NCBI GenBank assembly: GCA_016931415.1 | Contig: JAFGEW010000006.1 | Coordinates: forward strand, 28,310-92,309 | From: Verrucomicrobiota bacterium | Lineage (GTDB): Bacteria; Auribacterota; JABMQX01; JAFGEW01 | DNA: 64,000 bases | Direction: 5' to 3' | In this document: in pieces, positions 3,708 to 56,164 of the stretch | Layout of the letters: each line of letters opens with the position of its first letter | Position numbering within the stretch: the stretch's first letter is position 1 | Translations under genes and position numbers: made by a program | Notes under the pieces: model-generated | Database searches by the model: none | What the model was told of the DNA's origin: nothing | The model's input: only the letters and a program-made list of their open reading frames with translations

Positions 3708-5189
3708 CTATTCCGGCTCCAGGTCGGCGGCCAGGACGTGGGCTCGGCCGATACGCTTCCAGCGGCCCCATCGGAAGGCGGCGACGAAGATGAGGCCCTG
3801 CAGGACGTTGGATGCTGCGAGGCCGATCCACACGCCCGTGACCTGCCACGTGAACGACAACCCCCAGGCGAGCGGGATCCGCAGCGCAAGCATCGAGACC
3901 GCCGTAATCAGCATCGGCCAGAACGTGTCGCCCGCCCCGTTCATGGCCCGGCCGAGCACGATAGAGAACGCCATGAAGGCGAACGTGGCCGAGAACCATC
4001 GGAGGAAGCTCGCGCCGGTCGCGACGACTTCGGGGTCGGCGTTGAAGGCGGCGATCAGCGGCCGGGCGAAGACCCAGAAGACAACCGACACGGCGATGGA
4101 GATCGCGCCGTACATACCCATGACCACCCAGCCGGCGTGTTCGGCCCGGTCCGGTTTGCGGGCACCGAGGTTCTGACCGATGAGGGTCGCGGCCGCGTTG
4201 CCGAAGCCGATGCCGGGCATCATGACGATCATGCGCAGCCGTATGCCAATGCCGTAGGCGGCCAGCGCCGCCGTCCCGAACCTGGCCACGATGCCGATCA
4301 GGATGATGGCCGACAGGTTGCGCATGAGCATCTGGCCCGAGCCGAATACGCCAATCCTGAACATCTTCCAGACCGTGCGTCCGTGTGGGCGGAGATCGCC
4401 AAGGCGGAGATGAAAATGCGCATGCCCGCGGACGAAGAACACGCGCGCCAGCAATACGGCCGCCAGCGCCCGGGCCGCCAGCGTTGCCCACGCCGATCCC
4501 GCAACGCCCAACGCCGGCACGCCGAGCCAGCCAAAGATCAGGATGGGATCGAGCCCGATGTTGATCAGGTTGCAGAAGCCCATGATCTTGAGAGGGGTGA
4601 TGGCGTCGCCCGCGCCACGAAGCGCGGCTACGAAGGTGACCGCCAGCAGCATGGTGAACGCCCCGCCCAGGCTCACTTGGAGGTAGGCGGCCCCTTTGAC
4701 AATCACGTCCGGCTCGGCGCCGAAGGCCATCAGCAATGGCCGGGCGAGCAGTGCGGCGCTGCCGGCGAGTGCCGAGATGACGAGCGCCATCACGAGGCTC
4801 TGACCAACCACCGTTTCGGCCCGGCGGCGATTACCGCTCCCGATCGCCTGCGCCACCAGCGCCGTGCAGCCCGTGGTGATGCCGACGCCGAGCATGTAGA
4901 GCACGCCCATGATTGTGCCCGCCACCGCGACGCCCGCGATGGCGGCCGGGCCGAGCTTGCCGACGAAGAACATGTCGGCGATTGTGAACAGATTGTCGAG
5001 CAGCGCGGCGGCCATCATCGGCAGCGACAGCCGCCACGCCGACGTGAAGAGGTGGCCGCCCGTGATCCAGGCCTTGCTGCCGTTCGGCTCGACAGCCGCC
5101 TTGATCTGCGCGAGCGGGACGCTTTCTTCTGTCGGCGAGGGGTAGTCAGACACGATCAGTTTGGCCGAAGGGCTCCTTCTCGACTGCAC
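3708..5189 (-). CDS. MATE family efflux transporter
   Basis: 493 aa polytopic membrane protein with the 12-TM MATE pattern (AAALLDNLFTIADMFFVGKLG...). 15 bp downstream of the OMF gene on the same strand. Confidence 0.8.
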   Translation of the reverse strand: MQSRRSPSAKLIVSDYPSPTEESVPLAQIKAAVEPNGSKAWITGGHLFTSAWRLSLPMMAAALLDNLFTIADMFFVGKLGPAAIAGVAVAGTIMGVLYMLGVGITTGCTALVAQAIGSGNRRRAETVVGQSLVMALVISALAGSAALLARPLLMAFGAEPDVIVKGAAYLQVSLGGAFTMLLAVTFVAALRGAGDAITPLKIMGFCNLINIGLDPILIFGWLGVPALGVAGSAWATLAARALAAVLLARVFFVRGHAHFHLRLGDLRPHGRTVWKMFRIGVFGSGQMLMRNLSAIILIGIVARFGTAALAAYGIGIRLRMIVMMPGIGFGNAAATLIGQNLGARKPDRAEHAGWVVMGMYGAISIAVSVVFWVFARPLIAAFNADPEVVATGASFLRWFSATFAFMAFSIVLGRAMNGAGDTFWPMLITAVSMLALRIPLAWGLSFTWQVTGVWIGLAASNVLQGLIFVAAFRWGRWKRIGRAHVLAADLEPE

Positions 5190-5204: not shown

Positions 5205-6800
5205 CTATTGGCTGCGATCGGGCTGCACGGGCTGGCGTCCCGGTGCGGACACGCCGCGCCGTTCGAGCAACGATCCTTCCTTGAGGAACAGATCCGTGCG
5301 AGCCTTCAGGTAGTTGGTCGTGGCGGCCACCTCGGAGACCTGGCTCACTACGAGGTCGCGCTGGGCCTGGGCCACCAACAGCGCGGTGGACCTGCCGACA
5401 CGGAACTTGGCCATCTCGGCGCGCAGCTTCTCCTCCTGGAACTTGCGCGTGGTGGCCGTGGCGTCCACCTGCTGCCGGGCGCGTGAAACCTCGATGTAGG
5501 CCAGCTCGACGTCCTGGCGCACGAGGTCCTCGGTGTTGCGCAGCGACTCGTCGAGCTGCTGCTGTGTCAGCACGGCGCTGCGGTGGCGGGCCCTCTCCGC
5601 GCGGTTGCCGAGCGCGTAGTCGAAGGACAGGCCGACGGAGAGGTCGTCGCCCTCGCCGAGATCGCTGACCGAGCGGCCGAACGAGTCGGCATAGCCGGTC
5701 TTGCCGAGGCTGACGAACAGGTCCATGCGCGGCAGAAGGCCGTTCTTCGTCTTGACGAGGTTCAGGGTGCCTCGCTGGACGAGCAGCCGCGCCTGGTTCA
5801 GGTCGGGCCGCATCTGGAGGCCGACGGCGATGTGCTCCTCGAGCGGTTCCAGGGATTCGGCGGAGACCGTCGGCTCGCTCTGCGGCGTCACCTGGCGGCC
5901 CGCGCTCGGTGGCGCGCTCGGGCGGATGAGGCGCGCGAGCCGGGCCGCGAGCGTATCGACTGTGCTGCGGGCGTTGATCAAAGCCTCGCGTCGCAGGGCA
6001 ACCTCAGCTTCCGCGGCCGCGAGTTCCGTCTCAGCGAGATCGCCCACACGGATTCGCTGCCTGGTCTCGTCGAACTGCTGCTGGGCAAGGTTGAGCGACT
6101 CGTTGAGGATCTCGACCTGGCGCCGTGCCAGCACGTAGTCCCAGTAGGTCTCCTCCACTTCGGCGACAAGCGCTTCGGCGAAGCCGCGTAGCTCGTACTC
6201 GGAGAACTGTGTGTCGAGCCGGGCCTGGCGCAGGTCGGCCAGATTGACCGCGACACCGCGGCCTTTGAGCAGCGCCTGGGTGACCGTCAGCGCAGCGTGC
6301 GTTGTCTGGTCCCCGGCGGCCGCAGCGGCCGACGGGGTCGGGCCGGTGGTCAGGCCGAGTTCGATCATCGTGCCCGTCGGCAGAAGCTCGCGCACGCCCG
6401 CCGCGCCGCTCGTGGAGCTGCCGCCACCTGCCGCGCCGGTGCGGTCGTCGGTGTCTGTCTCGTTCACTGAGGCATCGGCCGAGAAGACGGGGTCGAACGC
6501 GGCGCGTTCCTGCTGCTCGAAGGTGCGCTCGATGTCCGGGTTGAGGCGCTGGACGCTCAGGGCACGGTTGTTCTCCAGGGCCATCAATACGGCGTCCTCG
6601 ATCGTGATCGTCATCGGCCAAGCCGGCGGCGAGGTCTCGGGCGACGGCGCCTGCCGGCCGGAGAACGACGGCGCGCCCGCAACGGTTGAGCTGGACGAGG
6701 CCTGCGGCGGATCGGTCTGATGCCTCGCGCACGACGCCAGCAACAGCGCCAGCGCAACCGCCGCCCCCCATGCCGTCCACGACCCAGTGACGATTCTCAC
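5205..6800 (-). CDS. TolC-like outer membrane efflux protein (OMF)
   Basis: Lipoprotein-type signal (LLLASCA), duplicated alpha-helical coiled-coil/beta-barrel repeat pattern of OMF proteins. 4-bp overlap with the RND gene. Confidence 0.8.
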   Translation of the reverse strand: MRIVTGSWTAWGAAVALALLLASCARHQTDPPQASSSSTVAGAPSFSGRQAPSPETSPPAWPMTITIEDAVLMALENNRALSVQRLNPDIERTFEQQERAAFDPVFSADASVNETDTDDRTGAAGGGSSTSGAAGVRELLPTGTMIELGLTTGPTPSAAAAAGDQTTHAALTVTQALLKGRGVAVNLADLRQARLDTQFSEYELRGFAEALVAEVEETYWDYVLARRQVEILNESLNLAQQQFDETRQRIRVGDLAETELAAAEAEVALRREALINARSTVDTLAARLARLIRPSAPPSAGRQVTPQSEPTVSAESLEPLEEHIAVGLQMRPDLNQARLLVQRGTLNLVKTKNGLLPRMDLFVSLGKTGYADSFGRSVSDLGEGDDLSVGLSFDYALGNRAERARHRSAVLTQQQLDESLRNTEDLVRQDVELAYIEVSRARQQVDATATTRKFQEEKLRAEMAKFRVGRSTALLVAQAQRDLVVSQVSEVAATTNYLKARTDLFLKEGSLLERRGVSAPGRQPVQPDRSQ

Positions 6801-9800
6801 GATACTGCCTCCTCACCGCCGGGGCCAGAGACAGCGGCGGTTCCCGGGTTGGTCGTCTCCTCGCCGAGCACGTGCCCGCCGCGCAGGCCGCGCTCGAAGA
6901 TCGAGTAGACCACGGGGACGATGACCAGCGTGATGAGCGTCGAGCTGAGCAGCCCGCCGATCACGGCGCGCGCCAGAGGCGCCTGGGCCTCACCGCCCTC
7001 GCCGAGGCCAAGGGCCAGCGGCAGCAGGCCAAACGAAGTTGTGAACGCCGTCATGAGGATCGGCCGCAGCCGGCGGCGTCCTGCTTCCTCGATGGCTTCG
7101 CGCAAGCCCATGCCCTCCTTCCGGCGCAGCAGGTTGGTGTGGTCCACGAGCAGGATGGCGTTGTTGACAACGATACCGGTCAGCATGATGCAGCCGATGT
7201 AGGAGTTCATGTTGAACGTCGTGTTGGTCAGCAGCAGCATGAGCACCACGCCGATGATGGCCAGCGGCACGGAGAACATCACGACGAACGGGTCGCGCAG
7301 CGATTCGAACAGGCAGGCCATCACGATGTAGACGAGCACGATGGCCAGGACCAGTCCGAGCCCGAGTTCGCGGAACGTCTTCTGCTGTTCCTTGTAGTCG
7401 CCGCCGAAGCCGATGCTGAAGCCCTGCGGCGCCGGCAGCGAGGCAAGGCCCTCGCGGATGTCGGCGATGATGGACCCCATGTCGCGTCCCTCGATGTTGG
7501 CGCGCACGGTGACGAGCCGTTCCTGGTCCTTGCGCTCGATACTCACCGGGCCCGAGCGCGGCCCGACCGAGACGATGTTGCGCAGCACGACGGGCTGGCC
7601 GTCGGCGTTGGCCACCGTCAGGTCGAGCAGTTCGCGTAGCGAACGCTGCTCGGCGTGCTTGAGTTTGACTCGGATGGAGAACTCGTCGCCGCCCTCGCGG
7701 TAGTTGCCCGCCAGCGTCCCGGCGATCACCGTCTGCAGCACTTGGGCGACGTCTTCAACGGAGACCTTCATGTCCTCGGCCTTGGCGCGGTCCACGGTGA
7801 TGAGCCGCTCCGGCGCGCCGATATCGCGACTGATCTGAGCGTCGGTGACGCCGCGTACTTGCTCGACGATCTGCCGGACGCGGCGGGCGAGCGCGTCGGC
7901 GGTCTCCAGATCGAAACCGCGTATCTCTACCTCGACGCGTTCGGTGCCGCCGCTGATCTGGCGAAGCAGGAAGAGCCCCTGGCCGACGCGCGTTCGGATG
8001 GTCGCCCCCGGGATGCCGGCCAGCTTCGGGCGCAGCGCGGTGGCGATCTGCTCGCTCGACCGCGTGCGTTCGGACTGCGGTTTGAGCGCGATCCGCATGA
8101 AGCCTGTGCGCGAGCCTTGGCCCCGCCACGATCCCCCGCCCACGTTGATGACGAAGCTCTCGCGCTCGGGCACCTCCTTCTCCACGACGGCCTGAATCTT
8201 CTGAAAGAGACGGTCCACGACGGCGGCCCGGGTGCCGACCTCCATCTCGGCTTCGACGCGCACTTCGCCCTCGTCGCTCTGCGGCATCAACTCGACGCCG
8301 ACGAAGGGAATCAGCGCCACGCTGGCGCCCAAGAGCAGCGCGGCGACGAGCAGCACAAGCGCCCGGTGGTCCAGTGCGTAGTGAAGCAGCCGCTTGTATC
8401 TTTCCTCGATGCGCGTGAACAACGTGCCGCTGATGCGGAACAGCTTGTGCGCCAGGCCTTCGTGGGCGAACCGGTCCAGGCTGGCCGGGCGGAGGAACCG
8501 CGACGCGAGCATCGGGATGAGCGTCAGCGCCGCGCCCAGCGAGCAGAGCAGGGCGAAACTGATGACGAGCGCCAGTTGTTTGAACATGACCCCGGCCAAG
8601 CCGCGCACGAGGATCAGTGGCAGAAAGATGGCCAGCGTCGTCAGCGTGCTCGCGATGATGGCGCCCGTCACTTCCTCGGCGCCGTGCACGGCCGCCGGCT
8701 CGGCGCCGACATGGCCTTCGCGGAGGCGGTAGATGTTCTCGAGCACTACGATCGAGCTGTCCACCAGCATGCCGACGCCCAGCGCCAGTCCGCCCAGCGT
8801 CATCAGGTTCAGCGTGAAGCCGCCAAAGTAGATCATCGCGAATGTGGCGACGATCGACACCGGGATCGCCACCGCAATGATCACCGTGCTGCGCAGATTG
8901 CGCAGAAATGCCAGCAGCACAAGCACGGCGAACAGACCGCCGAACGTGGCGGCCGAGCCGACGTTGGTGATCGAGCGCTTGATGTACTTCGAGGTGTCGA
9001 TGATGGGCATCAGGCGAATCTGGGGGATCTCGGCGTTGATCTTGTCCACTTCCTGCAGCAGACGCCGCGCGACGTCTACCGTGTTGGTGCCCGACTGCTT
9101 ATTGACCGAGAGCCGAATGCCTGGCTCGCCGTTGATGCGCACGATCTGCGTGACCCGCTCCCAACTGTCCACCACGTCGGCCACTTCGCCCAGGCGAACG
9201 GCCGTGCCCTTGCGCGTGGCGATCGTGGTGTTACGCAACTGGTCGAGGTCGGTGTATTCGCCGGGCGTGCGCAGCGTGATCTCGTAGTTGCCCGATTCGA
9301 TCATACCGGCCGGAAGCGTGATGTTCGCCGCCTTGATGCGGCCCACTACTTGGTCGAGTGGAATCTCGAGCGCCTTGAGCCTATCCGGATCGAGGTCCAC
9401 GTGGATCTCTCGTTCGAGCCCGCCCCACACGTCAAGCACCGCCACGCCCGGCGTGCGCTCGATACGGTACTTGACCTCGTCGTCGATGATGCGCCGCATC
9501 TGCACGGGGTCAAGGTTGCTCGAGGCGCCGAGGATCACAACCGGGAAGTCTGCCGGGTCGAACTTGCGCAGGGCGGGCCGGTCGGCATCATCGGGCAGAC
9601 GGCCGATGACCCGGTCAAGGCGGTCGCGGATGTCGCTGGCGGCCACGTCGAGGTCCGTGCCCCACAAGAAGGTGACTCGGACGTTGCTGTGGCCCTCGCT
9701 GGAGACGGACGAGATCTCCTCGACGCCGGGCACGGCGGCCATCGCCTGCTCGATCGGGCGGGTGATCAGCTCCTCGATCTCCTCGGGGCTGGCGTTCTCG

Positions 9801-9952
9801 TACGAGGTTGAGACGCTCAGGGTCGGATACGTGATGTCGGGCATGAGGTCCACGGGCAGGCGGCTCAGGGACACGCCGCCGAGAATGATGACGGTCAGCA
9901 CCACCATGACGGTGAAGACCGGTCGGTGCACCGCGAAACGCGCGACCTTCAT
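6797..9952 (-). CDS. RND efflux pump, AcrB/CzcA family
   Basis: 1051 aa, 12 TM with two large periplasmic loops; conserved N-terminus [43 protein letters not shown]. Confidence 0.95.
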
Positions 9953-11178
9953 GGGCGACTCCCCGGATCGGCTCGCCTTGCGGCGCCGGCTTCGCTTCCG
10001 GTCATTGGCGCGCGCTGGGGCAGGGCGACGCCCGCGCCGTCCTCGATCAAGTGCTGCCCGAGCGTCACAACCAGGCCGTCGAGCTGCGGCTCGAGGATCT
10101 CGATTAGGTTGCCCTCGATGATGCCGGTTGTGACGGGCACGAAGCGCGCCTTCATCTGCTCGGTGTCCACGACGAAGACGCCCTGTTTATCGTCGCGCCG
10201 GACGAGGCACGTCGCAGGGACGACAATGGCGTTGTCGTGTTCGGCGAACTGGATTCGGACCCGGGCAAACATGCCCGGCGCGAGCAGCCGCTCGGGATTC
10301 GGGATCTCGATCTCGACGCGGGCCTGTCGCGATTCCGTCTTGAGCACCGGGGCGCGGCGCACGATCTCGCCCGTGAACTCCTTGTTCGGATAGGCATCGG
10401 TGATGATGGAGATGACTCTGCCCGAGCTGATCTGCGGGAAGTCGCGCTCGATCACGTAGAGGACGGCGATCACCGAGCTGACGTCAACGATGGAGACAAT
10501 CGGGTCGTTGGCCTTGAGCATCGCGCCCTCGTCCACGAACCGCTCGGCGACTACGCGCGGCGTGTCGCCGTCGTCCCACGAGACCTCGATCTGCGTGTAG
10601 GCCAGTCGCGCGTTGGCGGCCCTGAGCTCGGCCTCCCTTTGCTTGATCTGTGCCTCCGCCACCTGCTGTTTGGCTTGGGCGGTCCGGTAGCGCGCCTCGG
10701 CCTGGTCGAGCTCAGCCTCGGAAGCTACTTTCTGCTCACGTAGCTCTTTAACGCGTTTGAAGTCGCGGTCGGCTGCGTCGAGTTCGCTGGCGGCATCAAC
10801 CAAGTTCGCCCTGCTGACGTCGAGCTGGGCCGTCGCCTGCGCCACTTGTTGGGCGTACTCCTCGCTGTCGAGCGAGGCGATCTGAGAGTTGTCCTTCACC
10901 AGGTCGCCGATGTTGACCAGCAGCTTCTCGAGCCGGCCCGGGATCTTGGGGGCGACGATGAACTGCGACTTCGGGAGCAGGCTGCCCGTGAACTCCGCGA
11001 TGTCACGGATTGTCTGTTGACGGACGGGTGTGGCCTCGATCGGCACCGCGCGCTGGCCGCGCCCGCGGTCGGAGTCCTCGTCCGCGGTTACCTTGGAGTA
11101 GATACGCCAGCCGATCAGCCCGAGAACGGCTAGAACGATAACGGCCGTGATCGCTCTCTTCATGCGTACGCCTTTCAC
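9949..11178 (-). CDS. RND efflux periplasmic adaptor (MFP/HlyD family)
   Basis: N-terminal membrane anchor, coiled-coil hairpin (AEAQIKQREAELRAANARLAYTQIEV), beta-barrel and MP domains. 4-bp overlaps with the RND and TetR genes. Confidence 0.9.
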   Translation of the reverse strand: MKGVRMKRAITAVIVLAVLGLIGWRIYSKVTADEDSDRGRGQRAVPIEATPVRQQTIRDIAEFTGSLLPKSQFIVAPKIPGRLEKLLVNIGDLVKDNSQIASLDSEEYAQQVAQATAQLDVSRANLVDAASELDAADRDFKRVKELREQKVASEAELDQAEARYRTAQAKQQVAEAQIKQREAELRAANARLAYTQIEVSWDDGDTPRVVAERFVDEGAMLKANDPIVSIVDVSSVIAVLYVIERDFPQISSGRVISIITDAYPNKEFTGEIVRRAPVLKTESRQARVEIEIPNPERLLAPGMFARVRIQFAEHDNAIVVPATCLVRRDDKQGVFVVDTEQMKARFVPVTTGIIEGNLIEILEPQLDGLVVTLGQHLIEDGAGVALPQRAPMTGSEAGAARRADPGSRP

Positions 11179-11912
11179 GTCTGTGGAGAGTCTGTGGTGC
11201 CCGGTGTGGCTGGCGCCTTCTGTCCTGCGTCTCGCGCACCCGCGTCTCGCGGGCCCGCATCCTGCGCACCCGCGTCTCGCGCACCCGCATCGTGCGTACC
11301 CGCGTCTCGCGCACCCGCATCGTGCGCACCCGCGTCTCGCGGGCCTGCGCCTCGCATGAACAGGTCCACCAACACGTCATCTCCGATAACGTCCTTGCTT
11401 CCACCCAGATTCCTGCCCCGTGCGCGCAGCAGCCCCATCAGGAAGGTGGCCAGCGTCTGGTCGGACAGACCGCTGCGGACCAGCCCTTCGAGCTGGCCCT
11501 TGCGCAGGATCCTGCCCAACGCTTCCACCAAGAGTTGGCGCTTCTCCTGCCAGCGTTGCTGTAAGTCGCTTCGGCACAGAGACATCCTGGCGTCCTCGGT
11601 CTGGATCATGCGGAAGAGCTGGCGGCGCCGTCCGAAGAAGGCCGTGATCGCCCCGCACGCCTGGAGCAACTGTTCCTCGAACGGGGCGTCGCCGACGACC
11701 CGGCGCTCGAGCAGGTCGCACAGCTCCTCGAACCCGGCGGTAGCCACCTGGAAGAACAGGTCGTCCTTGTCCTTGAAGTAGGTGTAGATCGTCCCCTTGC
11801 CGATGTGGGCCTCGTGGGCGATATCGTCGAGCGTGATCTCATGTAAGCGCTTGCTGGTGAACAGCTTCTCGGCCGCTTGCATGATCTGTTCGCGCTTGCC
11901 GGTCCTGGCCAT
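11175..11912 (-). CDS. TetR family transcriptional regulator with C-terminal pentapeptide-repeat tail
   Basis: N-terminal TetR HTH (KREQIMQAAEKLFTSKRLHEITLDDIAHEAHIGKGTIYTYFKDKDDLF). C-terminus is about 9 tandem [R/H/Q]DAG[A/T/P] pentapeptides. First gene of the efflux operon. Confidence 0.85.
   Translation of the reverse strand: MARTGKREQIMQAAEKLFTSKRLHEITLDDIAHEAHIGKGTIYTYFKDKDDLFFQVATAGFEELCDLLERRVVGDAPFEEQLLQACGAITAFFGRRRQLFRMIQTEDARMSLCRSDLQQRWQEKRQLLVEALGRILRKGQLEGLVRSGLSDQTLATFLMGLLRARGRNLGGSKDVIGDDVLVDLFMRGAGPRDAGAHDAGARDAGTHDAGARDAGAQDAGPRDAGARDAGQKAPATPGTTDSPQT
11207..11350. repeat. 15-bp tandem repeat (about 9.5 copies), coding for the TetR C-terminal pentapeptide repeats
   Basis: Units gcgtctcgcgcaccc and gcatcgtgcgcaccc alternate with minor variants. 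In frame within the tetR-like CDS. Confidence 0.85.
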
Positions 11913-11923
11913 GGCAACCCCAG

Positions 11924-11945
11924 TAATACTGACCAGTCAGTATTA
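11924..11945. promoter_or_regulatory. AT-rich perfect palindrome, candidate TetR operator
   Basis: TAATACTGAC-ca-GTCAGTATTA (10-bp arms, 2-nt spacer), 12 bp upstream of the tetR start codon. Strongly AT-rich in a GC-rich background. Confidence 0.55.
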
Positions 11946-12098
11946 TCACCCGCCGCCAGGTCCGTCAAGTGAGCACAAGCGGGATGCAGCCAGCCGGTTC
12001 GCAGCACCGGTGGCATCTCTATGACGCGTCTGATCAACCGGAGGTTTGTGCGGAAGCAGGCGGGTGCCCTGCACGGCCATTGGCAGAGAGAAGAAAAG

Positions 12099-12145
12099 CG
12101 CGCCCGACTGGACTCGAACCAGCAACCTCCGGATTCGTAGTCCGA
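12099..12145 (-). other. partial tRNA-Arg(ACG) 3' half (anticodon arm, variable loop, T-arm, acceptor 3' strand); att-like direct repeat
   Basis: rc: TCGGACTACGAATCCGG-AGGTT-GCTGGTTCGAGTCCAGT-CGGGCGCG. Aligns with the 3' half of the intact tRNA at 24535-24608. Its 13-bp flank aaagcgcgcccga is identical at both sites. No D-arm or 5' acceptor strand is present, so it is not a functional tRNA. Confidence 0.7.
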
Positions 12146-12625
12146 AAGGGCGGCCACGACACAAGTGGCCGCCCTCCGTTCTGTTACCACGTTTCCCGAC
12201 GAGAAACGCCGCACTGCAGAATGAACTCGGATGAAGTCAGGTGAACTCTGAAAGGCGCAATGAGCTCCAGAGGATGGCACAATCATGACACACAGGGCCT
12301 TTGTAACACCCGGGTGGATCCGCTTTCCCAGCGTGCTACTGGGCAACAGCTCGTTGGGCGTTCTCCTTTGTCGTCGGCCAGAGCATCTCAGTGGGTGCCC
12401 AGGCTCAGATAAGGAGATGGGAACGACATGTACTCCGACGTGACGCTGGGCGAAGTCCGCTTTATGCGTAGCTGCGGTGTCCGGGTCGGCAGCTATGTCT
12501 ACGACGAGTAGATCAAGGACGACGATCCGCGTGTGCTGGCGCTCGCGCAGGAGCCTCCGATCGTCTTCTCGGAGGGCCATGGGTGACCTGAAGAGGATCG
12601 CCGGACAGACGGCTCAGAACGACGG

Positions 12626-23379: not shown

Positions 23380-24182
23380 GCTCGTCCGCGCGAGTATAGC
23401 ATGGCCAGGCGGCGTCGTCTCTAGCGCGTTTGTAGTGTGGCGAGGCTCGGGCAGAAGCAGCAGGGCGAGCATGAGGTTTTGGTGCACCGAGCGGCTCGAC
23501 GAACTCGGGCCCGTCTACTTTGTGGGCCGACGGTGTCCACGTCAAGGCCGGGCTCGAGAAAGGCAAGGCGGCCTTGCTCGTGGCGATCACCGGATGCGCC
23601 GACGGACGCAAGCGGCTTGTGGCGCTCGTGGCCGGCCCGTGTGAGTTGGAAGCGACCTGGTCGGCCGTGCTGCGCGATCTGAAGCGGCGCGCGCTTCGCT
23701 GTCCCAAGCTCGTCGAGAGCGACGGCCACTTAGGCATCTGGGCCGGGCTCCGAAACGTCTATCCCGACGCGTCCGAGCGCGGACCTCCGGTCCGATGCGC
23801 TGCTGGAACCATCGGATCCTCAACGTGCTCGACAAGGTGCCAAGCGGTTCCAGGCCCAGGCGAGGCTGCAGCTCAGGCAGATCCGTATGCCGACAGCGAG
23901 CGCGAGGCGTTGCGGCTTTGCGAGCACTTCCAGGCGTCGTGCCACACGCACGAGCTCGACGACGCGGCCGCGCTGCTCGAGCGCGACTGGGACCGTATGG
24001 TGACGTTCTGTCGCTTCCGCCGCGAGCACTGCACGCATCTGCGCACCACCAACGTTGTTGAGTCGCCGTTCGGCGCGCTGCGACTCTGCACCCCGCCTGG
24101 CGGGGCCAAGCGTTTCAAGAATGTCGAGAACGCAGCCGCCGTCATCTTCAAGATGCTCCAGGAGGCCGAGACGGAGTTCTGA
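23380..24182 (+). pseudogene. IS256/Mutator-family transposase remnant (N-terminally truncated, at least 2 frameshifts)
   Basis: Three reading frames carry consecutive transposase segments: RFWCTERLDELGPVYFVG; then HVKAGLEKGKAALLVAITGCADGRKRLVALVAG...LVESDGHLGIWAGLRNVYPDAS; then RCWNHRILNVLDKVP (frame shift); then HLRTTNVVESPFGALRL....AAAVIFKML. No intact ORF and no inverted repeats identified. Confidence 0.7.
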
Positions 24183-24534
24183 CGCTTCAACACCCCGGAG
24201 TTGCCGCGTGAAGTCGTCCTCGGCGCCCAGTTCAAAGACGGACTACGAGTGCAACGCAACCTTCAGGCGGCCGCCGCCAAGAACCTGTCTAGACACCCAT
24301 TTGCCGAGACCTTCGCATGGACCAGAAAAGATGACACATCAATGACACATGCCAAGGGGATCCGTTGCCCGCAACTGGAAGCCTGATTGGGTCGAACTCA
24401 CTTACCGAGAGGCCGCTGGTGCGAGCGGAGGAAAACGACGGCGGCCTCTGATGCCCGGACTGAGATTCCGGGAGAAGCAGGAAAGGCGAAGACAGGTGAA
24501 GCCGGAAGCCCCTATACGGCAAGGCATGGGAAAG

Positions 24535-24608
24535 CGCGCCCGAGAGGGTTCGAACCTCTAACCTTCGGATCCGTAGTCCGACGCTCTATCCATTTGGGCT
24601 ACGGGCGC
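24535..24608 (-). tRNA. tRNA-Arg (anticodon ACG)
   Basis: rc: GCGCCCGTAGCCCAAATGGATAGAGCGTCGGACTACGGATCCGAAGGTTAGAGGTTCGAACCCTCTCGGGCGCG. 7-bp acceptor stem, anticodon arm TCGGA-CTACGGA-TCCGA, T-arm AGAGG-TTCGAAC-CCTCT, discriminator G. CCA not encoded. Confidence 0.9.
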
Positions 24609-30732: not shown

Positions 30733-32793
30733 ATGGCCGAGCCGGTTGACCGGATCGAGAACGAGGGTACCGGGGCGACGCGACGCCTCGTCCTGATCGC
30801 ACCCGTCATCTGCCTTGTGGCAATCCTCGCGCTGCACTTTGCGTTTCTGATGAGTCGGTTCGCGCCGGCGATCGCCACACCCGACGCGAACGGCTACTGG
30901 GCGCAGGGCAGCCTGCTGGCCACAACGGGCCGGACGTGGTTCGTGCCCGAGGCCGATACGCAGTACATCGGCATACACTGGCTCGTCACCGAGGACGGCC
31001 GGTACTTCAGCCGCTATCCGCCGGGGCTGGCCGTGCTTGCCGGGCTCGTCTACGGGACGCTCGGCGTCAAGGCGAGTGTGCTCATCAACCCCGTGCTGGC
31101 GACCCTGTCGCTCGTGGGTGTCTTTGTGCTCGTCAGGCGGCTCCTCGGACCGTGGTGGGCGCTTGTCGCCGTGGGCGTGCTCGCGGTCAACCCGGTCTTC
31201 AACCAGCAAGCGATCCAGTGCTTCGCGCACATGGCGGTCACTGCGCCGCTTGTGTGGGGCCTTGCGTTTCTCGCGTGGTGGTCGGATCGCGGCAAGCTAT
31301 GGCAGGTCTTCGTCGCGGGCTTGCTCTTCGGGTTCATCATCACTGTCCGGTATCCGGAGGCGCTGTTTGCGCTCGGCGTCTCCGTGTTCGTGCTCTGGCA
31401 CGCGCGCGAGCGGCCGCGGCTCTGGCTTCACGCCGCGTTGGGCGCTACCGGAGCGGCGGCGCCGATCGTGCCGCTGCTCGTGCGCAACCAGCTGGCCTTC
31501 GGCGCCTTCTACCGCACGGGGTACTCGCTGACGAACGAGCAGACCGGGTTCGGCTGGGACTACTTCCGGCAGCACTTCGTCGGCTACGTCCGCGGCCTCA
31601 ACAGCGACGGAGTCGGGCTGTTCTTCGCGCTCGGGGCGATCGGGATCGTGATGATGTGCGCCGTGCGTCGCTGGCGGCGTTACGGTGTGCTGCTCGCGCT
31701 GCTCGTCGTGCCGACGACGCTGCTCTACATGGCTTACTACTGGGGCGGCATGGGGATGGGTGGCGGCATGGGCGGCGGCATGACGATGCGCTTCCTGCTG
31801 CCCACGTTCGTCTGCTACGCCGTCGCGGGCACGTGGCTGCTCGCCTCCCTGACGCGCGAGTCGTCGACGGCGCTCAGGATTGCCGCGGTGGCCGTCGTGC
31901 TCCTGCTCCAGTTCGTCTGGGGTGCGCTCTATACGAACGACGAAGGCCGGCAGCTCCGCCACCAGAAAGAAGTGCTCGCGCGCGTGACCGATGCGCTCGA
32001 TGACAACGTCGAACGTGGCGACGTCGTCATCGCCAACGAGCAGATCCTCCAGCACCTCGATTTCGTGCGCCACTGGCGGCTTGTCGACCCGATGGCGCTC
32101 CGGCCGATCGGCGGAGCGATGAGATTCATGCCCGGCATGGGGCAGGACGCTGATTCCGACGAGCCGATGCCCATGCAGCGCGAGAAGCTCGCCGCTCGCC
32201 TCGAGAAGTACAAGGGTATGACACCGGTCGAGCAGGCGCAGGGGCTCGCCGCCGACGTAGACACGTGGGCGGGCGAGCACAAGGTCTACTTCGTCGGCCC
32301 CGAAGAGCAACTCTCCGGCCTGCGTGGGCCGTTCGCCGAGGGTACGTTCAAGATTGTCGCGCGGGTCAAGCTGCCCGGAGCGCCCGCGTTGGATCGGCCG
32401 TTCGGCGGGCCGGGGAATCCCGGTGGAATGCCCGGTGGGCCTGGTGGAATGCCCAGCGGTCCGGGCGGAATGCCCGGTGGCCCGGACGGCGTGCCCGGCC
32501 GTGCTGGCGGCGTGATGCCTCCTGATCTCGAACCCGGTGAGGTGGCAGGCGGTCCGCCGGAAGGTCGTGCCCCAGCCGACCGACCGGCCTTTCGGGACCG
32601 TGCTCCCGTCAACCGCCGGGGGAATCGCGCGTTGCGGCGAGGGGTCGGAGGAATGGGTGGCCGGGGTGGGCAGTACGGCGAGGAGATCGTCATTGCCGAG
32701 TGGGTCGGCCGCTCGCGGTCAACTGGACCAGCGGATCACAAGCCGAATGACGGACTCGAGCCCCTCGACGGCGCGCCGGGCTCAGCGCATTAG
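30733..32793 (+). CDS. GT39/ArnT-PMT-like membrane glycosyltransferase with Gly/Pro/Met-rich C-terminal tail
   Basis: Polytopic N-terminal domain resembling dolichyl-phosphate-mannose/4-amino-arabinose transferases (YPPGLAVLAGLVYGTLG...). SD AGGGAG before ATG at 30733. Internal GGMGMGGGMGGGM and C-terminal (GGMPGGP)n low-complexity repeats. Confidence 0.65.
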   Translation: MAEPVDRIENEGTGATRRLVLIAPVICLVAILALHFAFLMSRFAPAIATPDANGYWAQGSLLATTGRTWFVPEADTQYIGIHWLVTEDGRYFSRYPPGLAVLAGLVYGTLGVKASVLINPVLATLSLVGVFVLVRRLLGPWWALVAVGVLAVNPVFNQQAIQCFAHMAVTAPLVWGLAFLAWWSDRGKLWQVFVAGLLFGFIITVRYPEALFALGVSVFVLWHARERPRLWLHAALGATGAAAPIVPLLVRNQLAFGAFYRTGYSLTNEQTGFGWDYFRQHFVGYVRGLNSDGVGLFFALGAIGIVMMCAVRRWRRYGVLLALLVVPTTLLYMAYYWGGMGMGGGMGGGMTMRFLLPTFVCYAVAGTWLLASLTRESSTALRIAAVAVVLLLQFVWGALYTNDEGRQLRHQKEVLARVTDALDDNVERGDVVIANEQILQHLDFVRHWRLVDPMALRPIGGAMRFMPGMGQDADSDEPMPMQREKLAARLEKYKGMTPVEQAQGLAADVDTWAGEHKVYFVGPEEQLSGLRGPFAEGTFKIVARVKLPGAPALDRPFGGPGNPGGMPGGPGGMPSGPGGMPGGPDGVPGRAGGVMPPDLEPGEVAGGPPEGRAPADRPAFRDRAPVNRRGNRALRRGVGGMGGRGGQYGEEIVIAEWVGRSRSTGPADHKPNDGLEPLDGAPGSAH

Positions 32794-53894: not shown

Positions 53895-53916
53895 TCGCTG
53901 CGCGTCCTTCTCGAGT

Positions 53917-53960
53917 GCGCGCCCGCATTCAATGCGCGCCCGCATTCAATGCGCGCCCGG
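53917..53960. repeat. 17-bp direct repeat x2.6 (gcgcgcccgcattcaat) immediately after the HEAT-protein stop
   Basis: Read directly: gcgcgcccgcattcaat gcgcgcccgcattcaat gcgcgcccgg. Confidence 0.8.
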
Positions 53961-55012: not shown

Positions 55013-56164
55013 CTACTGCGCCGCCTCGGCGGGCTCTTGGTCCGCCGCCTCGGCGGGCTTCTGACCCACCGTCTCGGCGGGCTTCTGACGCGTTGTCTCA
55101 GCGGGCTTGTAGCGCTGGGCCTTGCGCAGGATGCGTTCGGCGTCGCGTTCGCGGTCGAGGCGTTTGAGCGTGCTCGCCAGGTTAAGGTACGCGGTGTAGA
55201 AATCGGTGCGGTACTTGACGGCGCTGCGGAAGGCGGCTTCGGCCCTCTCGTACTCGCCCATGGCGAAGAGGACGTTGCCGAGCTCGTTCCAGACTTGGGC
55301 GTCCTTGGGCATTCTCTTGAGGTAGAAGTTGAACTGATCGATGGAGGCTTGGGGCCGGCCGATGCGCGCGAGCAGACGGGCCTTCTCGGTGTAGGCCTCG
55401 GTGTAGTTGGGTTGGAGCGTGGTGAGCCGCTCAAGCTCCAGGACGGCCTCGTACAGCCGGTCGGAGTTGGCGAGTGCCATGGCGTGCTCGAACCGCACGG
55501 GTAAGTAGCCGGGCCGTTCCTGGAGCGCGCGCTCGAAGGCATCGGCCGCCTCGACGTAGCGACCGAGCTTCATGAGCACGGCCCCCTTGTTCGACAGCAC
55601 GTCGAATGGCGGCGCCCCGAACTGGGCGGCGTTCTCGAGCGATACGAGCGCCAGGTCGTGCTTCCCCATCTGGCTGTAGGCGATGGCGATGTTGACGTGC
55701 GCGGGCGCGTAGCCCACCTCACGCTTGAGCGCGTGCTCGAAGGCGGCGATCGCCTCTTCGACGCGGCCCAGCCGCAGCAGGGCCACGCCGCGGCTGTTCT
55801 GGGCCGGGACGAACCCGGGCGAGACGGCCAATGCGGCCTCGTACGCTTCGAGCTCGCGTTTCTCGTTGCCGAGACGGGCGTAGCAGGCGCCGATTTCGAG
55901 GTAGGGGCGCGGGTTGTCCGGCTCCAGATCGAGGGCGCGTCGGAAGCTGGCTATCGCCTTGTTGTACTGGCCGGCGTCGTAGAGCTCGATGCCGCGTTCG
56001 TAATAGGCGCCGGCTTGACCGAGCGCGTTGATCTGGTCGGGGGTTGGTCCCGGATCGCTTGTCGTGCCGCGGCCGCAGCCGCTGCAGAGCGCGACAAGCG
56101 CGATGAGCATCGAGAAGCAGATCGCTGTGGTGCAGAGACGCAAACGGCGGCGCATATCAGGCAT
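55013..56164 (-). CDS. TPR-repeat lipoprotein with C-terminal 8-aa tandem repeats
   Basis: Lipobox LVALCSGCG after start MPDMRRR. At least 8 TPR units. C-terminus KPAETTRQKPAETVGQKPAEAADQEPAEAAQ. The longer upstream ORF is Arg-rich and unlikely to be coding. Confidence 0.7.
   Translation of the reverse strand: MPDMRRRLRLCTTAICFSMLIALVALCSGCGRGTTSDPGPTPDQINALGQAGAYYERGIELYDAGQYNKAIASFRRALDLEPDNPRPYLEIGACYARLGNEKRELEAYEAALAVSPGFVPAQNSRGVALLRLGRVEEAIAAFEHALKREVGYAPAHVNIAIAYSQMGKHDLALVSLENAAQFGAPPFDVLSNKGAVLMKLGRYVEAADAFERALQERPGYLPVRFEHAMALANSDRLYEAVLELERLTTLQPNYTEAYTEKARLLARIGRPQASIDQFNFYLKRMPKDAQVWNELGNVLFAMGEYERAEAAFRSAVKYRTDFYTAYLNLASTLKRLDRERDAERILRKAQRYKPAETTRQKPAETVGQKPAEAADQEPAEAAQ
55016..55113. 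repeat. about 24-bp tandem repeat x4 encoding the PAExxxQK repeats at the TPR-lipoprotein C-terminus
   Basis: cgcctcggcgggct(t)ctg... units seen four times. Confidence 0.75.

Follow-up and report, generated by a model that had tools for sequence, protein, structure and literature searches.

The window, the whole 64 kb stretch of DNA that was analysed, carries a tetR/acrR-family gene and a set of efflux genes on its minus strand, and the following features were identified at this locus:

11939..11968, minus strand: sigma-70-like promoter TTGACG-18-AATACT (promoter scan; 1 site versus 0.2 expected)
11924..11945, unstranded: candidate TetR operator, a perfect inverted repeat TAATACTGAC-TG-GTCAGTATTA located 12 nt upstream of the tetR ATG (repeat search; 10-nt arms, 100% complementary)
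11175..11912, minus strand: tetR/acrR-family repressor gene, 245 aa, with an ATG start and a TGA stop at 11177-11175 (ORF list)
11748-11885, minus strand: helix-turn-helix (HTH), residues 10-55 (Pfam TetR_N)
11352..11912, minus strand: folded TetR core, residues 1-187, comprising the HTH and a ligand/dimerisation bundle, nine helices (AlphaFold2, Foldseek)
9949..11163, minus strand: gene of an RND periplasmic adaptor (MFP), 404 aa when counted from its ATG (Pfam HlyD_D23; NCBIfam TIGR01730 RND_mfp, 191 bits)
6797..9952, minus strand: gene of an AcrB-family RND inner-membrane transporter, overlapping the MFP gene by 4 nt (Pfam ACR_tran, E=1.5e-260)
5205..6800, minus strand: gene of an OEP/TolC-like outer-membrane efflux protein, overlapping the RND gene by 4 nt (Pfam OEP, E=6.7e-45)
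3708..5189, minus strand: MATE-family transporter gene, 15 nt after the OEP gene (Pfam MatE, E=1.9e-61)

The tetR gene opens an efflux operon (tetR-MFP-RND-OMF-MATE) in which the MATE gene probably comes last. A PADLOC search of the neighbouring five-gene cluster returned no matches. The -10 hexamer AATACT sits within the candidate operator palindrome, the core of which (ATACTGAC..GTCAGTAT) was found upstream of tetR in nine related loci; by analogy with characterised family members, TetR would be expected to bind at this 10-2-10 site.

An initial annotation, made from the DNA letters alone, had read the ORF at 11175-11912 as a TetR regulator, and this was borne out by a Pfam match of residues 10-55 of the 245-aa product to TetR_N (PF00440; E=3.6e-13, 49.5 bits against a cut-off of 24). 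The deduced protein is identical to NCBI MBN1916346.1, and the full-length ORF, tail included, is already present in the NCBI annotation. The AlphaFold2 model exhibited pLDDT values of 83-98 across residues 1-190 and nine helices (H6-17 to H178-187), while Foldseek matched the core to EthR, FadR and YvdT with a probability of 1.00 and target-normalised TM-scores of 0.7-0.83. These alignments cover ~185-192 columns of targets that are 186-197 residues long, in line with the earlier statement that TetR proteins usually stop after the helical bundle. Scores against the NCBIfam equivalogs (AcrR, MtrR, FadR and others) were all far under their cut-offs, the highest being FadR with 48.7 bits against 200; on sequence grounds the protein is a family member without assignment to a named orthologue, and it presumably functions as a repressor.

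The protein resembles the TetR/AcrR repressors of RND operons (AcrR, TtgR, MtrR and NalD) and the EthR, B. subtilis FadR and YvdT folds in its TetR_N HTH and nine-helix all-alpha fold, and it shares with the RND-operon repressors a candidate palindromic operator over the promoter and MFP-RND-OMF neighbours. Unlike in this group (AcrR, TtgR, MtrR, NalD, EthR, FadR and YvdT), the tetR gene of the window is co-directional with and first in its operon rather than divergent. The protein shows little sequence similarity to solved TetR members (best PDB E=4e-10; 17-24% identical residues in fold alignments) and, in contrast to these 186-197-aa relatives, extends into a 59-residue unstructured tail. 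A literature search for TetR proteins with a disordered C-terminal extension or tail found no paper, and broader searches returned general tandem-repeat papers only.

The tail is encoded by a tandem array and a short non-repeat end, which is followed by the junction with the MFP gene:

11220..11354, minus strand: array of nine in-frame 15-nt units, 135 nt, with a 30-nt higher-order period (TRF, unit table, Hamming matrix, 15-mer search)
11235..11339, minus strand: seven inner units with the derived Ala codon GCG (Hamming distances, Ala codon table)
11178..11219, minus strand: non-repeat tail end of 14 residues, KAPATPGTTDSPQT, in frame and fast-evolving across orthologues
11161..11176, minus strand: tetR-MFP junction, a conserved block with a Shine-Dalgarno-like GAAAGG (11176-11171) that shares bases with the TGA stop, then 7 nt of spacer and the ATG at 11163-11161

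Read in the direction of transcription, the units are RGAGP (the seed, 11354-11340), RDAGA, HDAGA, RDAGT, HDAGA, RDAGA, QDAGP, RDAGA and RDAGQ (11234-11220). The array had been described as nine copies of [R/H/Q]DAG[A/T/P] at 11207-11350; the in-register coordinates are 11220-11354, and eight units follow the x-D-A-G-x pattern, the last of these with a final Q, whereas the 5' unit is the R-G-A-G-P seed, part of which still lies in the conserved terminus of the folded domain. That a 15-bp tandem DNA repeat encodes the pentapeptides was confirmed by TRF (period 15: 7.7 copies, 76% matches, score 146; 11227/11234-11341), although the actual repeat unit is 30 nt long: over the same interval, period 30 gave the stronger signal (3.6 copies, 93% matches, no indels, score 188), and this super-unit consists of alternating R and H units. 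The exact 15-mer CGAGACGCGGGTGCG has three copies in the 64 kb, all of them within the array, and all 28 positions at which a 12-mer recurs 30 nt on lie within the array, compared with 0 in 30 Markov-simulated windows. A search for the array unit elsewhere in the window gave no excess over chance, with 12 matches at ≤3 mismatches versus 13.4 expected, each one outside the array carrying three mismatches. With its head-to-tail units, multiple-of-three length and high identity, the array is of the coding-minisatellite type. The ancestral Ala codon GCA is found in both edge units and in nearly all orthologue units, whereas all seven inner units carry GCG; the inner units show a mean distance of 2.6 nt among themselves versus 5.4 nt to orthologue units. 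The shared derived GCG is indicative of a lineage-specific amplification, and the sequence comparison thus points to the seven inner units as the part amplified in the lineage of the window. The D-A-G core is present in every x-D-A-G-x unit and in all orthologues. Alternative readings of the array were rejected, namely an alternative-frame ORF on the minus strand (11003-11404) in which it appears as ETRVR repeats and the plus-strand ORFs that span it, as it is the TetR frame that continues from the conserved core and that orthologues retain.

The array had been taken to end at the MFP gene, from which it is in fact separated by the 14 non-repeat residues (KAPATPGTTDSPQT). Across orthologues, the post-repeat tail including the preceding Gln exhibited a mean pairwise identity of 52%, compared with 86% in the core. 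The tail, i.e. the last 59 residues, is roughly charge-balanced (7 K/R, 9 D/E and 2 H) and contains no hydrophobic residue (L/I/V/F/M/W/Y/C, 0/59), with A, G, D, R, P and T making up 52 of the 59 positions. A structure prediction of the tail, as the initial annotation had suggested, showed it to be unstructured, with AlphaFold pLDDT values of 53-67, no DSSP helix or strand past residue 187 and no contact with the core, and a Pfam search of the isolated tail matched no family even at E≤10, so that assignment to the pentapeptide-repeat or another known repeat family was rejected. From the end of helix 9 onwards, the protein is therefore modelled as a disordered low-complexity segment. When the tail was searched with phmmer against the full library, xDAGx tracts were found in 588 representative proteins at E≤1e-3, and none of the best 150 of these 588 matches fitted the TetR-core HMM at E≤10; judged from these sequences, the xDAGx unit is ordinary low-complexity sequence that is widespread in unrelated proteins.

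At the junction, the conserved block TGAAAGGCG...GCATGAAGA was observed in seven orthologous loci. The MFP start ATG at 11163 lies 11 nt past the tetR stop, and the MFP gene was called at 404 aa in loci L094, L095 and L096. The 4-bp overlap between tetR and the MFP gene reported earlier corresponds to a GTGA created by ORF-finder extension, the conserved start being the ATG at 11163-11161. The GTG at 11178 was rejected as an MFP start, as it is out of frame in L042, where the spacer is 1 nt shorter, and no start codon is present there in L094, L095 and L097.

The initial annotation had proposed to look for variation in repeat number among orthologous genes, and such variation was found: orthologues with 73-81% protein identity encode 0, 1, 2, 3 or 5 extra units, versus 8 in the window, these counts being derived from short-read metagenome assemblies, in which a 135-nt array can be miscounted. 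Proteins P0007 and P0008 have no extra unit (RGAGQ only), P0011 has one, P0004, P0005 and P0006 have two, P0003 has three, and P0002 has five and also contains the 30-nt super-unit. P0004 and P0006 still read LRGAG-LRGAG-LRDAG, in which the origin of the array is visible. Aligned at the DNA level, the loci have conserved flanks and differ from the zero-copy locus by gaps of 30, 45, 75 and 120 nt. All orthologue reading frames are intact through the array, with length differences that are multiples of 15 nt, and they run on to a conserved stop, which supports in-frame translation of the repeat within the TetR protein. Also conserved are the post-repeat peptide Q-x-A-P-A-x-P-G...H-T and the adjoining of the stop and the MFP start.

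In a neighbour-joining tree without support values, the repeat-bearing proteins form one clade, with one zero-copy protein inside and the one-copy protein outside it, suggesting that gains and losses recur. Identical alleles without variation came from several samples, with the following contig counts: P0003 (n=2), P0004 (n=2), P0008 (n=4) and P0011 (n=2); these alleles have 0-3 extra units. The allele of the window was found on a single contig and forms a protein cluster with one member; besides this protein itself, the protein search revealed no allele with >81% identity to the TetR of the window, a look-up of the exact protein gave no recorded contig, and a scan of genome contigs revealed none closer than 63%. 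Among 117 homologues, a tail up to the MFP start was always present, variable and with a median length of ~20 aa. As a variable tail is always present in the lineage, the repeat represents an expansion inside an existing tail; its description as appended in frame thus holds for the frame, which is kept in all orthologues, and not for the notion of an appended module.

The array is comparable to in-frame coding minisatellites or VNTRs, such as yeast adhesin repeats (reviewed in PMC3899988), in its multiple-of-three units, near-identical inner units and diverged edge units. As in coding VNTRs, copy number differs between relatives while flanks are conserved, presumably through slippage or unequal recombination. 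Known functional VNTRs are mostly found in surface proteins, in which length alters adhesion or antigenicity, whereas the carrier here is a cytoplasmic repressor with no phenotype tied to copy number. Phase-variable contingency loci likewise have a repeat tract within a gene and a copy number that shifts over evolutionary time, but the 15-nt unit never shifts the frame and the orthologues are all in frame, so on/off switching is impossible. The xDAGx tracts of high-GC bacteria (Archangium, Vitiosangium, Myxococcales and Streptomyces) share the five-residue period, the D-A-G core and the H-D-A-G-T and R-D-A-G-A units; unlike the TetR array, they occur in long unrelated proteins, with a lipoprotein-signal-like N-terminus in 62 of the best 150 and no TetR protein among these. 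The TetR array arose independently of these tracts, from its own R-G-A-G codons.

Taken together, these observations are best read as a near-neutral coding minisatellite in the disordered tail of an otherwise ordinary efflux-operon TetR, to which we assign a probability of roughly 0.75. On family grounds, a TetR dimer would occupy the 10-2-10 palindrome, which overlaps the operon promoter's -10 hexamer, and would be released by a ligand, with MFP translation beginning 11 nt beyond the tetR stop. The tetR frame of this lineage always overruns the last helix into a poorly constrained stretch of ~20 aa that reaches to the MFP ribosome-binding site, and within this stretch the 15 nt encoding the last folded-domain residues (L-R-G-A-G) would have been duplicated; the conserved frame, post-repeat tail and MFP junction of the orthologues argue for growth of the array from these codons. 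Copies would then have been gained by replication slippage or unequal recombination, at first as 15-nt units and later as 30-nt blocks (R-unit plus H-unit), to reach the eight extra units of the window. The expansion alters tail length only: the reading frame, the DNA-binding and ligand domains and the MFP junction are unchanged. It is most likely neutral or close to neutral. The retention of D-A-G in every unit and orthologue could reflect selection or recent common descent of the units.

No result supports the suggestion that the array modulates the regulator or its translational coupling to the efflux genes: close orthologues have the same operon without an array, no structure is predicted in the tail, and conservation is lacking for the RNA hairpin discussed below. 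At the protein level, pentapeptide copy number might act as an evolvable tuning knob that alters repressor half-life, solubility, dimer behaviour or effective repressor concentration at the operator and, in turn, basal pump expression. Copy number does vary between close orthologues, D-A-G is kept in all units, and the tail leaves from helix 9 (as assigned by AlphaFold), a helix of the dimerisation bundle in TetR proteins; moreover, variable coding repeats in other systems are known to produce functional variation (review PMC3899988). However, orthologues with zero extra units share the core (~80% identity), the MFP junction and, in those loci with recovered upstream sequence, the operator core; the tail lacks predicted structure and core contact; the unit is low-complexity sequence found in hundreds of unrelated proteins; and the 0-3-unit alleles (P0003, P0004, P0008 and P0011) are each identical across two to four contigs. 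Such tuning is consequently considered unlikely, and it appears quite improbable that the tail is a selected, length-tunable, His-containing and charge-balanced entropic tail, the copy number of which sets TetR turnover or operator occupancy; if it were, it would provide a fast mutational route to adjusting basal efflux-pump expression with the DNA- and ligand-binding domains untouched. A pentapeptide-repeat beta-helix (a Qnr/MfpA-like DNA mimic) on the repressor shares with the tail only the five-residue period and a count of nine units (~two coils). Unlike PF00805 proteins (Qnr and MfpA), the tail has no A(D/N)LXX consensus, central hydrophobic residue, Pfam match (Pentapeptide families remained unmatched even at E≤10) or predicted beta-helix; neither Leu nor Phe, nor indeed any hydrophobic residue, occurs at any unit position, and AlphaFold predicted no strand (pLDDT 53-67). 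As far as sequence and prediction show, this reading is refuted, its likelihood being negligible.

Action at the RNA or DNA level would invoke the quasi-palindromic units (CCGCG-AGA-CGCGG), which fold into a long, GC-rich hairpin of the tetR transcript shortly before the MFP start and could affect mRNA stability or the TetR:pump translation ratio. A folding energy of -114 kcal/mol was computed for the 241-nt segment (z = -2.65; 1/200 shuffles as good), and a separate ViennaRNA run gave z = -3.2 for the window. Across orthologues, however, the excess stability is not conserved (z from +0.39 to -3.66) and is unrelated to the common junction; no consistent pairing involves the ribosome-binding site or the ATG of the MFP gene; Rfam matched nothing in 10900-12300 except a tRNA-like element, and hence no known RNA motif in the array; and such a fold is the automatic outcome of repeating a self-complementary unit. 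The hairpin, being significant in the window and not conserved, is thus treated as a by-product, and a regulatory role for it seems very improbable, even if its stability in the window might have some effect on the mRNA. There is also a small chance that short-read assembly of the metagenome bin generated a false copy number, or even the array as such: the window derives from a MAG, its organism is represented by one contig only in the collections searched, and tandem repeats are known to cause assembly errors (PMC6868369). Against this, position-specific variants (ACG in unit 3, CAG..GGC CCG in unit 6) anchor the units, the array spans just 135 nt, the identical protein is found under NCBI and Logan alike, and six related organisms, assembled independently, carry this array at the same position, with unit numbers that differ from that of the window.

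With the near-neutral minisatellite as the favoured reading, the functional importance of the array as it stands is little, the protein being an efflux repressor with a low-complexity tail. If copy number changed repressor dosage or stability, the locus would be a simple case in which repeats tune a bacterial transcription factor, although no evidence points that way. Its value, which is modest, lies in a clean natural series (0, 1, 2, 3, 5 and 8 extra units) that shows a coding minisatellite arising from the final turn of a folded domain and then growing in the unconstrained stretch ahead of the ribosome-binding site of the following gene.

A tandem repeat in the 3' part of tetR, as described in the initial annotation, was recovered by Tandem Repeats Finder as one array under three descriptions, the best of which has a period of 30 nt (3.6 copies, 93% matches, no indels, score 188, 11234-11341). 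The period-15 description (7.7 copies) reaches 76% matches, so that the 15 bp previously reported corresponds to the unit length, while the real period is 30 nt. In codon register, the array runs from 11354 down to 11220 as nine 15-nt units, rather than over the previously assigned 11207-11350, and the nine copies originally counted represent eight xDAGx units plus one RGAGP seed. One exact 15-mer has three occurrences across the 64 kb, every one of them inside the array, and 12-mers recurring 30 nt on were detected at 28 positions, all within the array, compared with 0 in 30 simulated windows. This recurrence is far beyond chance, and the repeat is therefore considered real.

Units of the tetR array (minus strand, 11354 to 11220)
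Unit 0 (seed): CGA GGC GCA GGC CCG, RGAGP
Unit 1: CGA GAC GCG GGT GCG, RDAGA
Unit 2: CAC GAT GCG GGT GCG, HDAGA
Unit 3: CGA GAC GCG GGT ACG, RDAGT
Unit 4: CAC GAT GCG GGT GCG, HDAGA
Unit 5: CGA GAC GCG GGT GCG, RDAGA
Unit 6: CAG GAT GCG GGC CCG, QDAGP
Unit 7: CGA GAC GCG GGT GCG, RDAGA
Unit 8: CGA GAC GCA GGA CAG, RDAGQ
After unit 8: KAPATPGTTDSPQT, then the tetR TGA stop (11177-11175)

Tandem repeats were also observed elsewhere in the window, at 32418-32510 (period 21/42, about 3 copies, 76-81% matches), 53916-53959 (period 17, not a multiple of three; 2.6 copies, 100% identical) and 55019-55107 (period 24, 3.7 copies, 83%).

A search of 5.8 billion proteins with the window TetR identified 387 homologues, the closest at 73-81% identity, whose tails were compared from ...LVDLFL, the conserved end of helix 9.

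TetR tails following ...LVDLFL (extra units: 15-nt copies beyond the seed)
P0007/8, 205 aa: RGAGQ-AAPAVPGAASPLDK; 0 extra units
P0011, 209 aa: RGAGL-RDAGQ-ATPAV...; 1 extra unit
P0004, 220 aa: RGAGL-RGAGL-RDAGQ-TSQALPG...; 2 extra units
P0006, 220 aa: QGAGL-RGAGL-RDAGQ-MAPALPG...; 2 extra units
P0005, 215 aa: RGVGL-RDAGP-RDAGQ-RAPALPG...; 2 extra units
P0003, 220 aa: RGAGL-RDAGA-RDAGS-REAEK-TAPAP...; 3 extra units
P0002, 230 aa: RGAGL-RDAGS-HGAGL-RDAGS-PDAGL-RDAGQ-TAPASP...; 5 extra units
Window TetR, 245 aa: nine-unit array; 8 extra units

Repeat number thus varies among orthologues (0, 1, 2, 3, 5 or 8 extra units), in agreement with the variation that had been anticipated. Set against the zero-copy locus in a DNA alignment, the orthologous loci showed large differences solely as gaps of 30, 45, 75 and 120 nt, with conserved flanks on both sides of the array. 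In all aligned orthologues the reading frame stays open until a stop that either coincides with the MFP start or shortly precedes it, and a stop codon upstream of the array, which would have placed the repeat outside the CDS, was found in none of the orthologous loci aligned. As far as this comparison extends, the array is translated as part of TetR.

L-RGAG is still repeated verbatim in P0004 and P0006, indicating that the array originated when the 15 nt encoding the last residues of the folded TetR domain (R-G-A-G codons) were duplicated; of these residues, G188 is invariant and A189 nearly invariant among 49 homologues. This was followed by amplification in the window's lineage, mainly of a 30-nt block consisting of an R-unit and an H-unit. 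The Ala codon is GCA in both edge units and in nearly all orthologue units, and GCG in all seven inner units; the inner units are on average 2.6 nt apart and 5.4 nt from orthologue units; and units 1, 5 and 7 share one sequence and units 2 and 4 another, indicative of a lineage-specific amplification of most of the array. Tandem arrays of this type generally grow by replication slippage or unequal recombination, as this one probably did. P0002 carries a 30-nt super-unit of its own. Furthermore, a neighbour-joining tree of the core domain (without support values) grouped the repeat-bearing proteins in one clade, with a zero-copy protein inside and a one-copy protein outside it, which suggests repeated gain and loss of units.

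Structure prediction of the tail, proposed in the initial annotation as a check, was performed using AlphaFold2 with a 49-sequence alignment, and yielded a confident nine-helix TetR core (block-mean pLDDT 83-98 to residue 190; last helix 178-187), followed by residues 188-245 with a pLDDT of 53-67 and no secondary structure. Foldseek placed the core among EthR, Bacillus subtilis FadR, YvdT and other TetR structures, with alignments of about 185-192 columns to targets of 186-197 residues. The solved relatives therefore end where the core ends, whereas the window TetR adds a 59-residue tail. This tail contains zero hydrophobic residues (7 K/R, 9 D/E, 2 H) and had no Pfam match even at E<=10, which, together with the lack of predicted secondary structure, excludes a pentapeptide-repeat beta-helix as far as prediction goes. 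A variable tail appears to be normal for this TetR lineage (across 117 homologues, a median of about 20 residues follows ...LVDLFL), and K-A-R-A or E-A-Q-A closes many of the homologue tails, these residues being simply a translation of the MFP ribosome-binding site and spacer. In the clade that carries the repeat, mean identity over the 15 residues that follow the array is 52%, compared with 86% for the core, showing that the array sits in a weakly constrained stretch of peptide sequence.

When 1.84 billion representative proteins were scanned in full with the tail as query, 588 matched at E<=1e-3, the best being long xDAGx arrays (PDAGV, TDAGT, LDAGT, RDAGP and others) in unrelated proteins; none of the best 150 matched a TetR-core HMM even at E<=10. 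The xDAGx peptide motif is, judged from these matches, a recurrent form of low-complexity sequence, and it seems to have arisen on a TetR independently and locally. To our knowledge, no Pfam family model exists for this repeat type. Similar tracts were detected in genome and metagenome scans in Archangium, Vitiosangium, Myxococcales and Streptomyces loci. Across hundreds of unrelated public genome and metagenome proteins (P0121-P0270 among them), the arrays sometimes reach dozens of units, and genome loci carrying them (L018, L021, L023, L026, L031, L037 and others) are Myxococcales-like and Streptomyces. The arrays often lie shortly after a lipoprotein-type signal sequence; by a crude regex, the N-terminus of 62 of the 150 best matches resembles such a signal.

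The tetR gene is the first of a co-directional efflux cluster.

Features of the tetR cluster
11924-11945: perfect inverted repeat TAATACTGAC-TG-GTCAGTATTA, 12 nt upstream of the tetR ATG
11175-11912 (-): tetR, 245 aa, ATG start, TGA stop 11177-11175
Downstream of tetR (-): RND periplasmic adaptor (MFP), HlyD_D23; NCBIfam RND_mfp, 191 bits
6797-9952 (-): AcrB-family RND pump, E=1.5e-260
5205-6800 (-): outer-membrane efflux protein (OEP)
3708-5189 (-): MATE-family transporter, 15 nt after the OEP gene

Pfam TetR_N is matched at residues 10-55 of TetR (E=3.6e-13) and TetR_C_43, weakly, in a later part of the protein. An NCBI entry of identical sequence and length, MBN1916346.1, comes from a Verrucomicrobia/Verrucomicrobiota MAG and bears the annotation 'TetR/AcrR family transcriptional regulator'. 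As the MATE gene follows those of the RND tripartite pump and shares their strand, one TetR-controlled operon may encode two different efflux systems. The inverted repeat overlaps the -10 hexamer of the sole sigma-70-like promoter found in the region (TTGACG-18-AATACT), and nine related loci carry the core of this repeat ahead of tetR. The arrangement is typical of an autoregulated efflux operon under TetR control, with TetR binding presumed from the family.

The 4-bp overlap between tetR and MFP originally proposed was traced to an ORF-finder extension of MFP to GTG 11178 (GTGA). Gene calls in orthologues begin the 404-aa MFP at an ATG; in locus L042 the spacer is 1 nt shorter and the GTG frame hits a stop; and loci L094, L095 and L097 have neither the TGA nor a start codon at this point, tetR reading through to an ATGA overlap with the same conserved MFP ATG. 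The evidence thus favours ATG 11163-11161 as the MFP start in the window, 11 nt past the tetR stop and preceded by GAAAGG at a 7-nt spacing, within a junction block (TGA-AAGGCG-nnn-GC-ATG-AAG-A) conserved among orthologous loci. Across the clade (L042, L043, L047, L093-L097 and window 11161-11178), the tetR stop occupies two alternative places, either 11 nt before the MFP ATG (10 nt in L042) or at the ATGA overlap, in which case TetR gains the residues (R/G)K(A/V)(R/K)A; L047 has GTG as its downstream start, with the tetR stop overlapped by an in-frame ATG. Translational coupling of tetR and MFP is plausible in all compared loci, and any such coupling is independent of the array.

Two tRNA-Arg elements were identified upstream of tetR.

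tRNA-Arg elements and the genes between them
12098-12172 (-): tRNA-Arg(ACG) call by ARAGORN, beside the tetR promoter; 29.5 bits on Rfam tRNA, below the gathering score
12626-23313 (-): five co-directional genes, encoding DUF4132/HEAT (1228 aa), MoxR-like AAA_5 ATPase (377 aa), DUF5682 (832 aa), VWA_CoxE (385 aa) and SWIM zinc-finger (738 aa) proteins
23520-24182 (+): truncated Mutator-family transposase, adjoining the intact tRNA
24534-24608 (-): tRNA-Arg(ACG) call by ARAGORN; 61.7 bits on the Rfam tRNA model at 24535-24608

The 3' half of the 12098-12172 element aligns to the true tRNA, with paired T-stem differences, and a GC hairpin (GGGCGGCCAC-TTGTGTC-GTGGCCGCCC) replaces the 5' half. It has the appearance of a tRNA remnant at the far boundary of a ~12.4 kb insertion at tRNA-Arg. 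The five-gene cluster, which had no PADLOC matches, and the transposase gene possibly form a mobile island with a putative MoxR-VWA system.

The repeat is real, in frame and variable in copy number between species. The array itself is unlikely to be an assembly artefact, since six related assemblies, made independently, also contain it and its units differ by position-specific variants; the exact unit count is that assembled in the MAG. Action at the RNA level could be envisaged through the long hairpin of the array, which arises because each unit is self-complementary (CCGCG-AGA-CGCGG), and the window sequence indeed folds better than shuffles (z = -2.65 and z = -3.2 in two runs); however, z ranges from +0.39 to -3.66 across orthologues, and pairing of the MFP initiation region is not consistent among them. 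A length-tunable tail setting repressor dosage is improbable: nothing beyond the copy-number variation itself speaks for a tuning function, whereas close relatives maintain the same operon with zero units, and several samples yielded alleles of 0-3 extra units without any change.

TetR efflux repressors and in-frame VNTRs in disordered regions, the two kinds to which the gene and its array belong, are both known. The array is best explained as a near-neutral coding minisatellite, formed from the terminal R-G-A-G codons of a TetR/AcrR efflux repressor and then enlarged in the window's lineage, within a tail that was already unconstrained and disordered.
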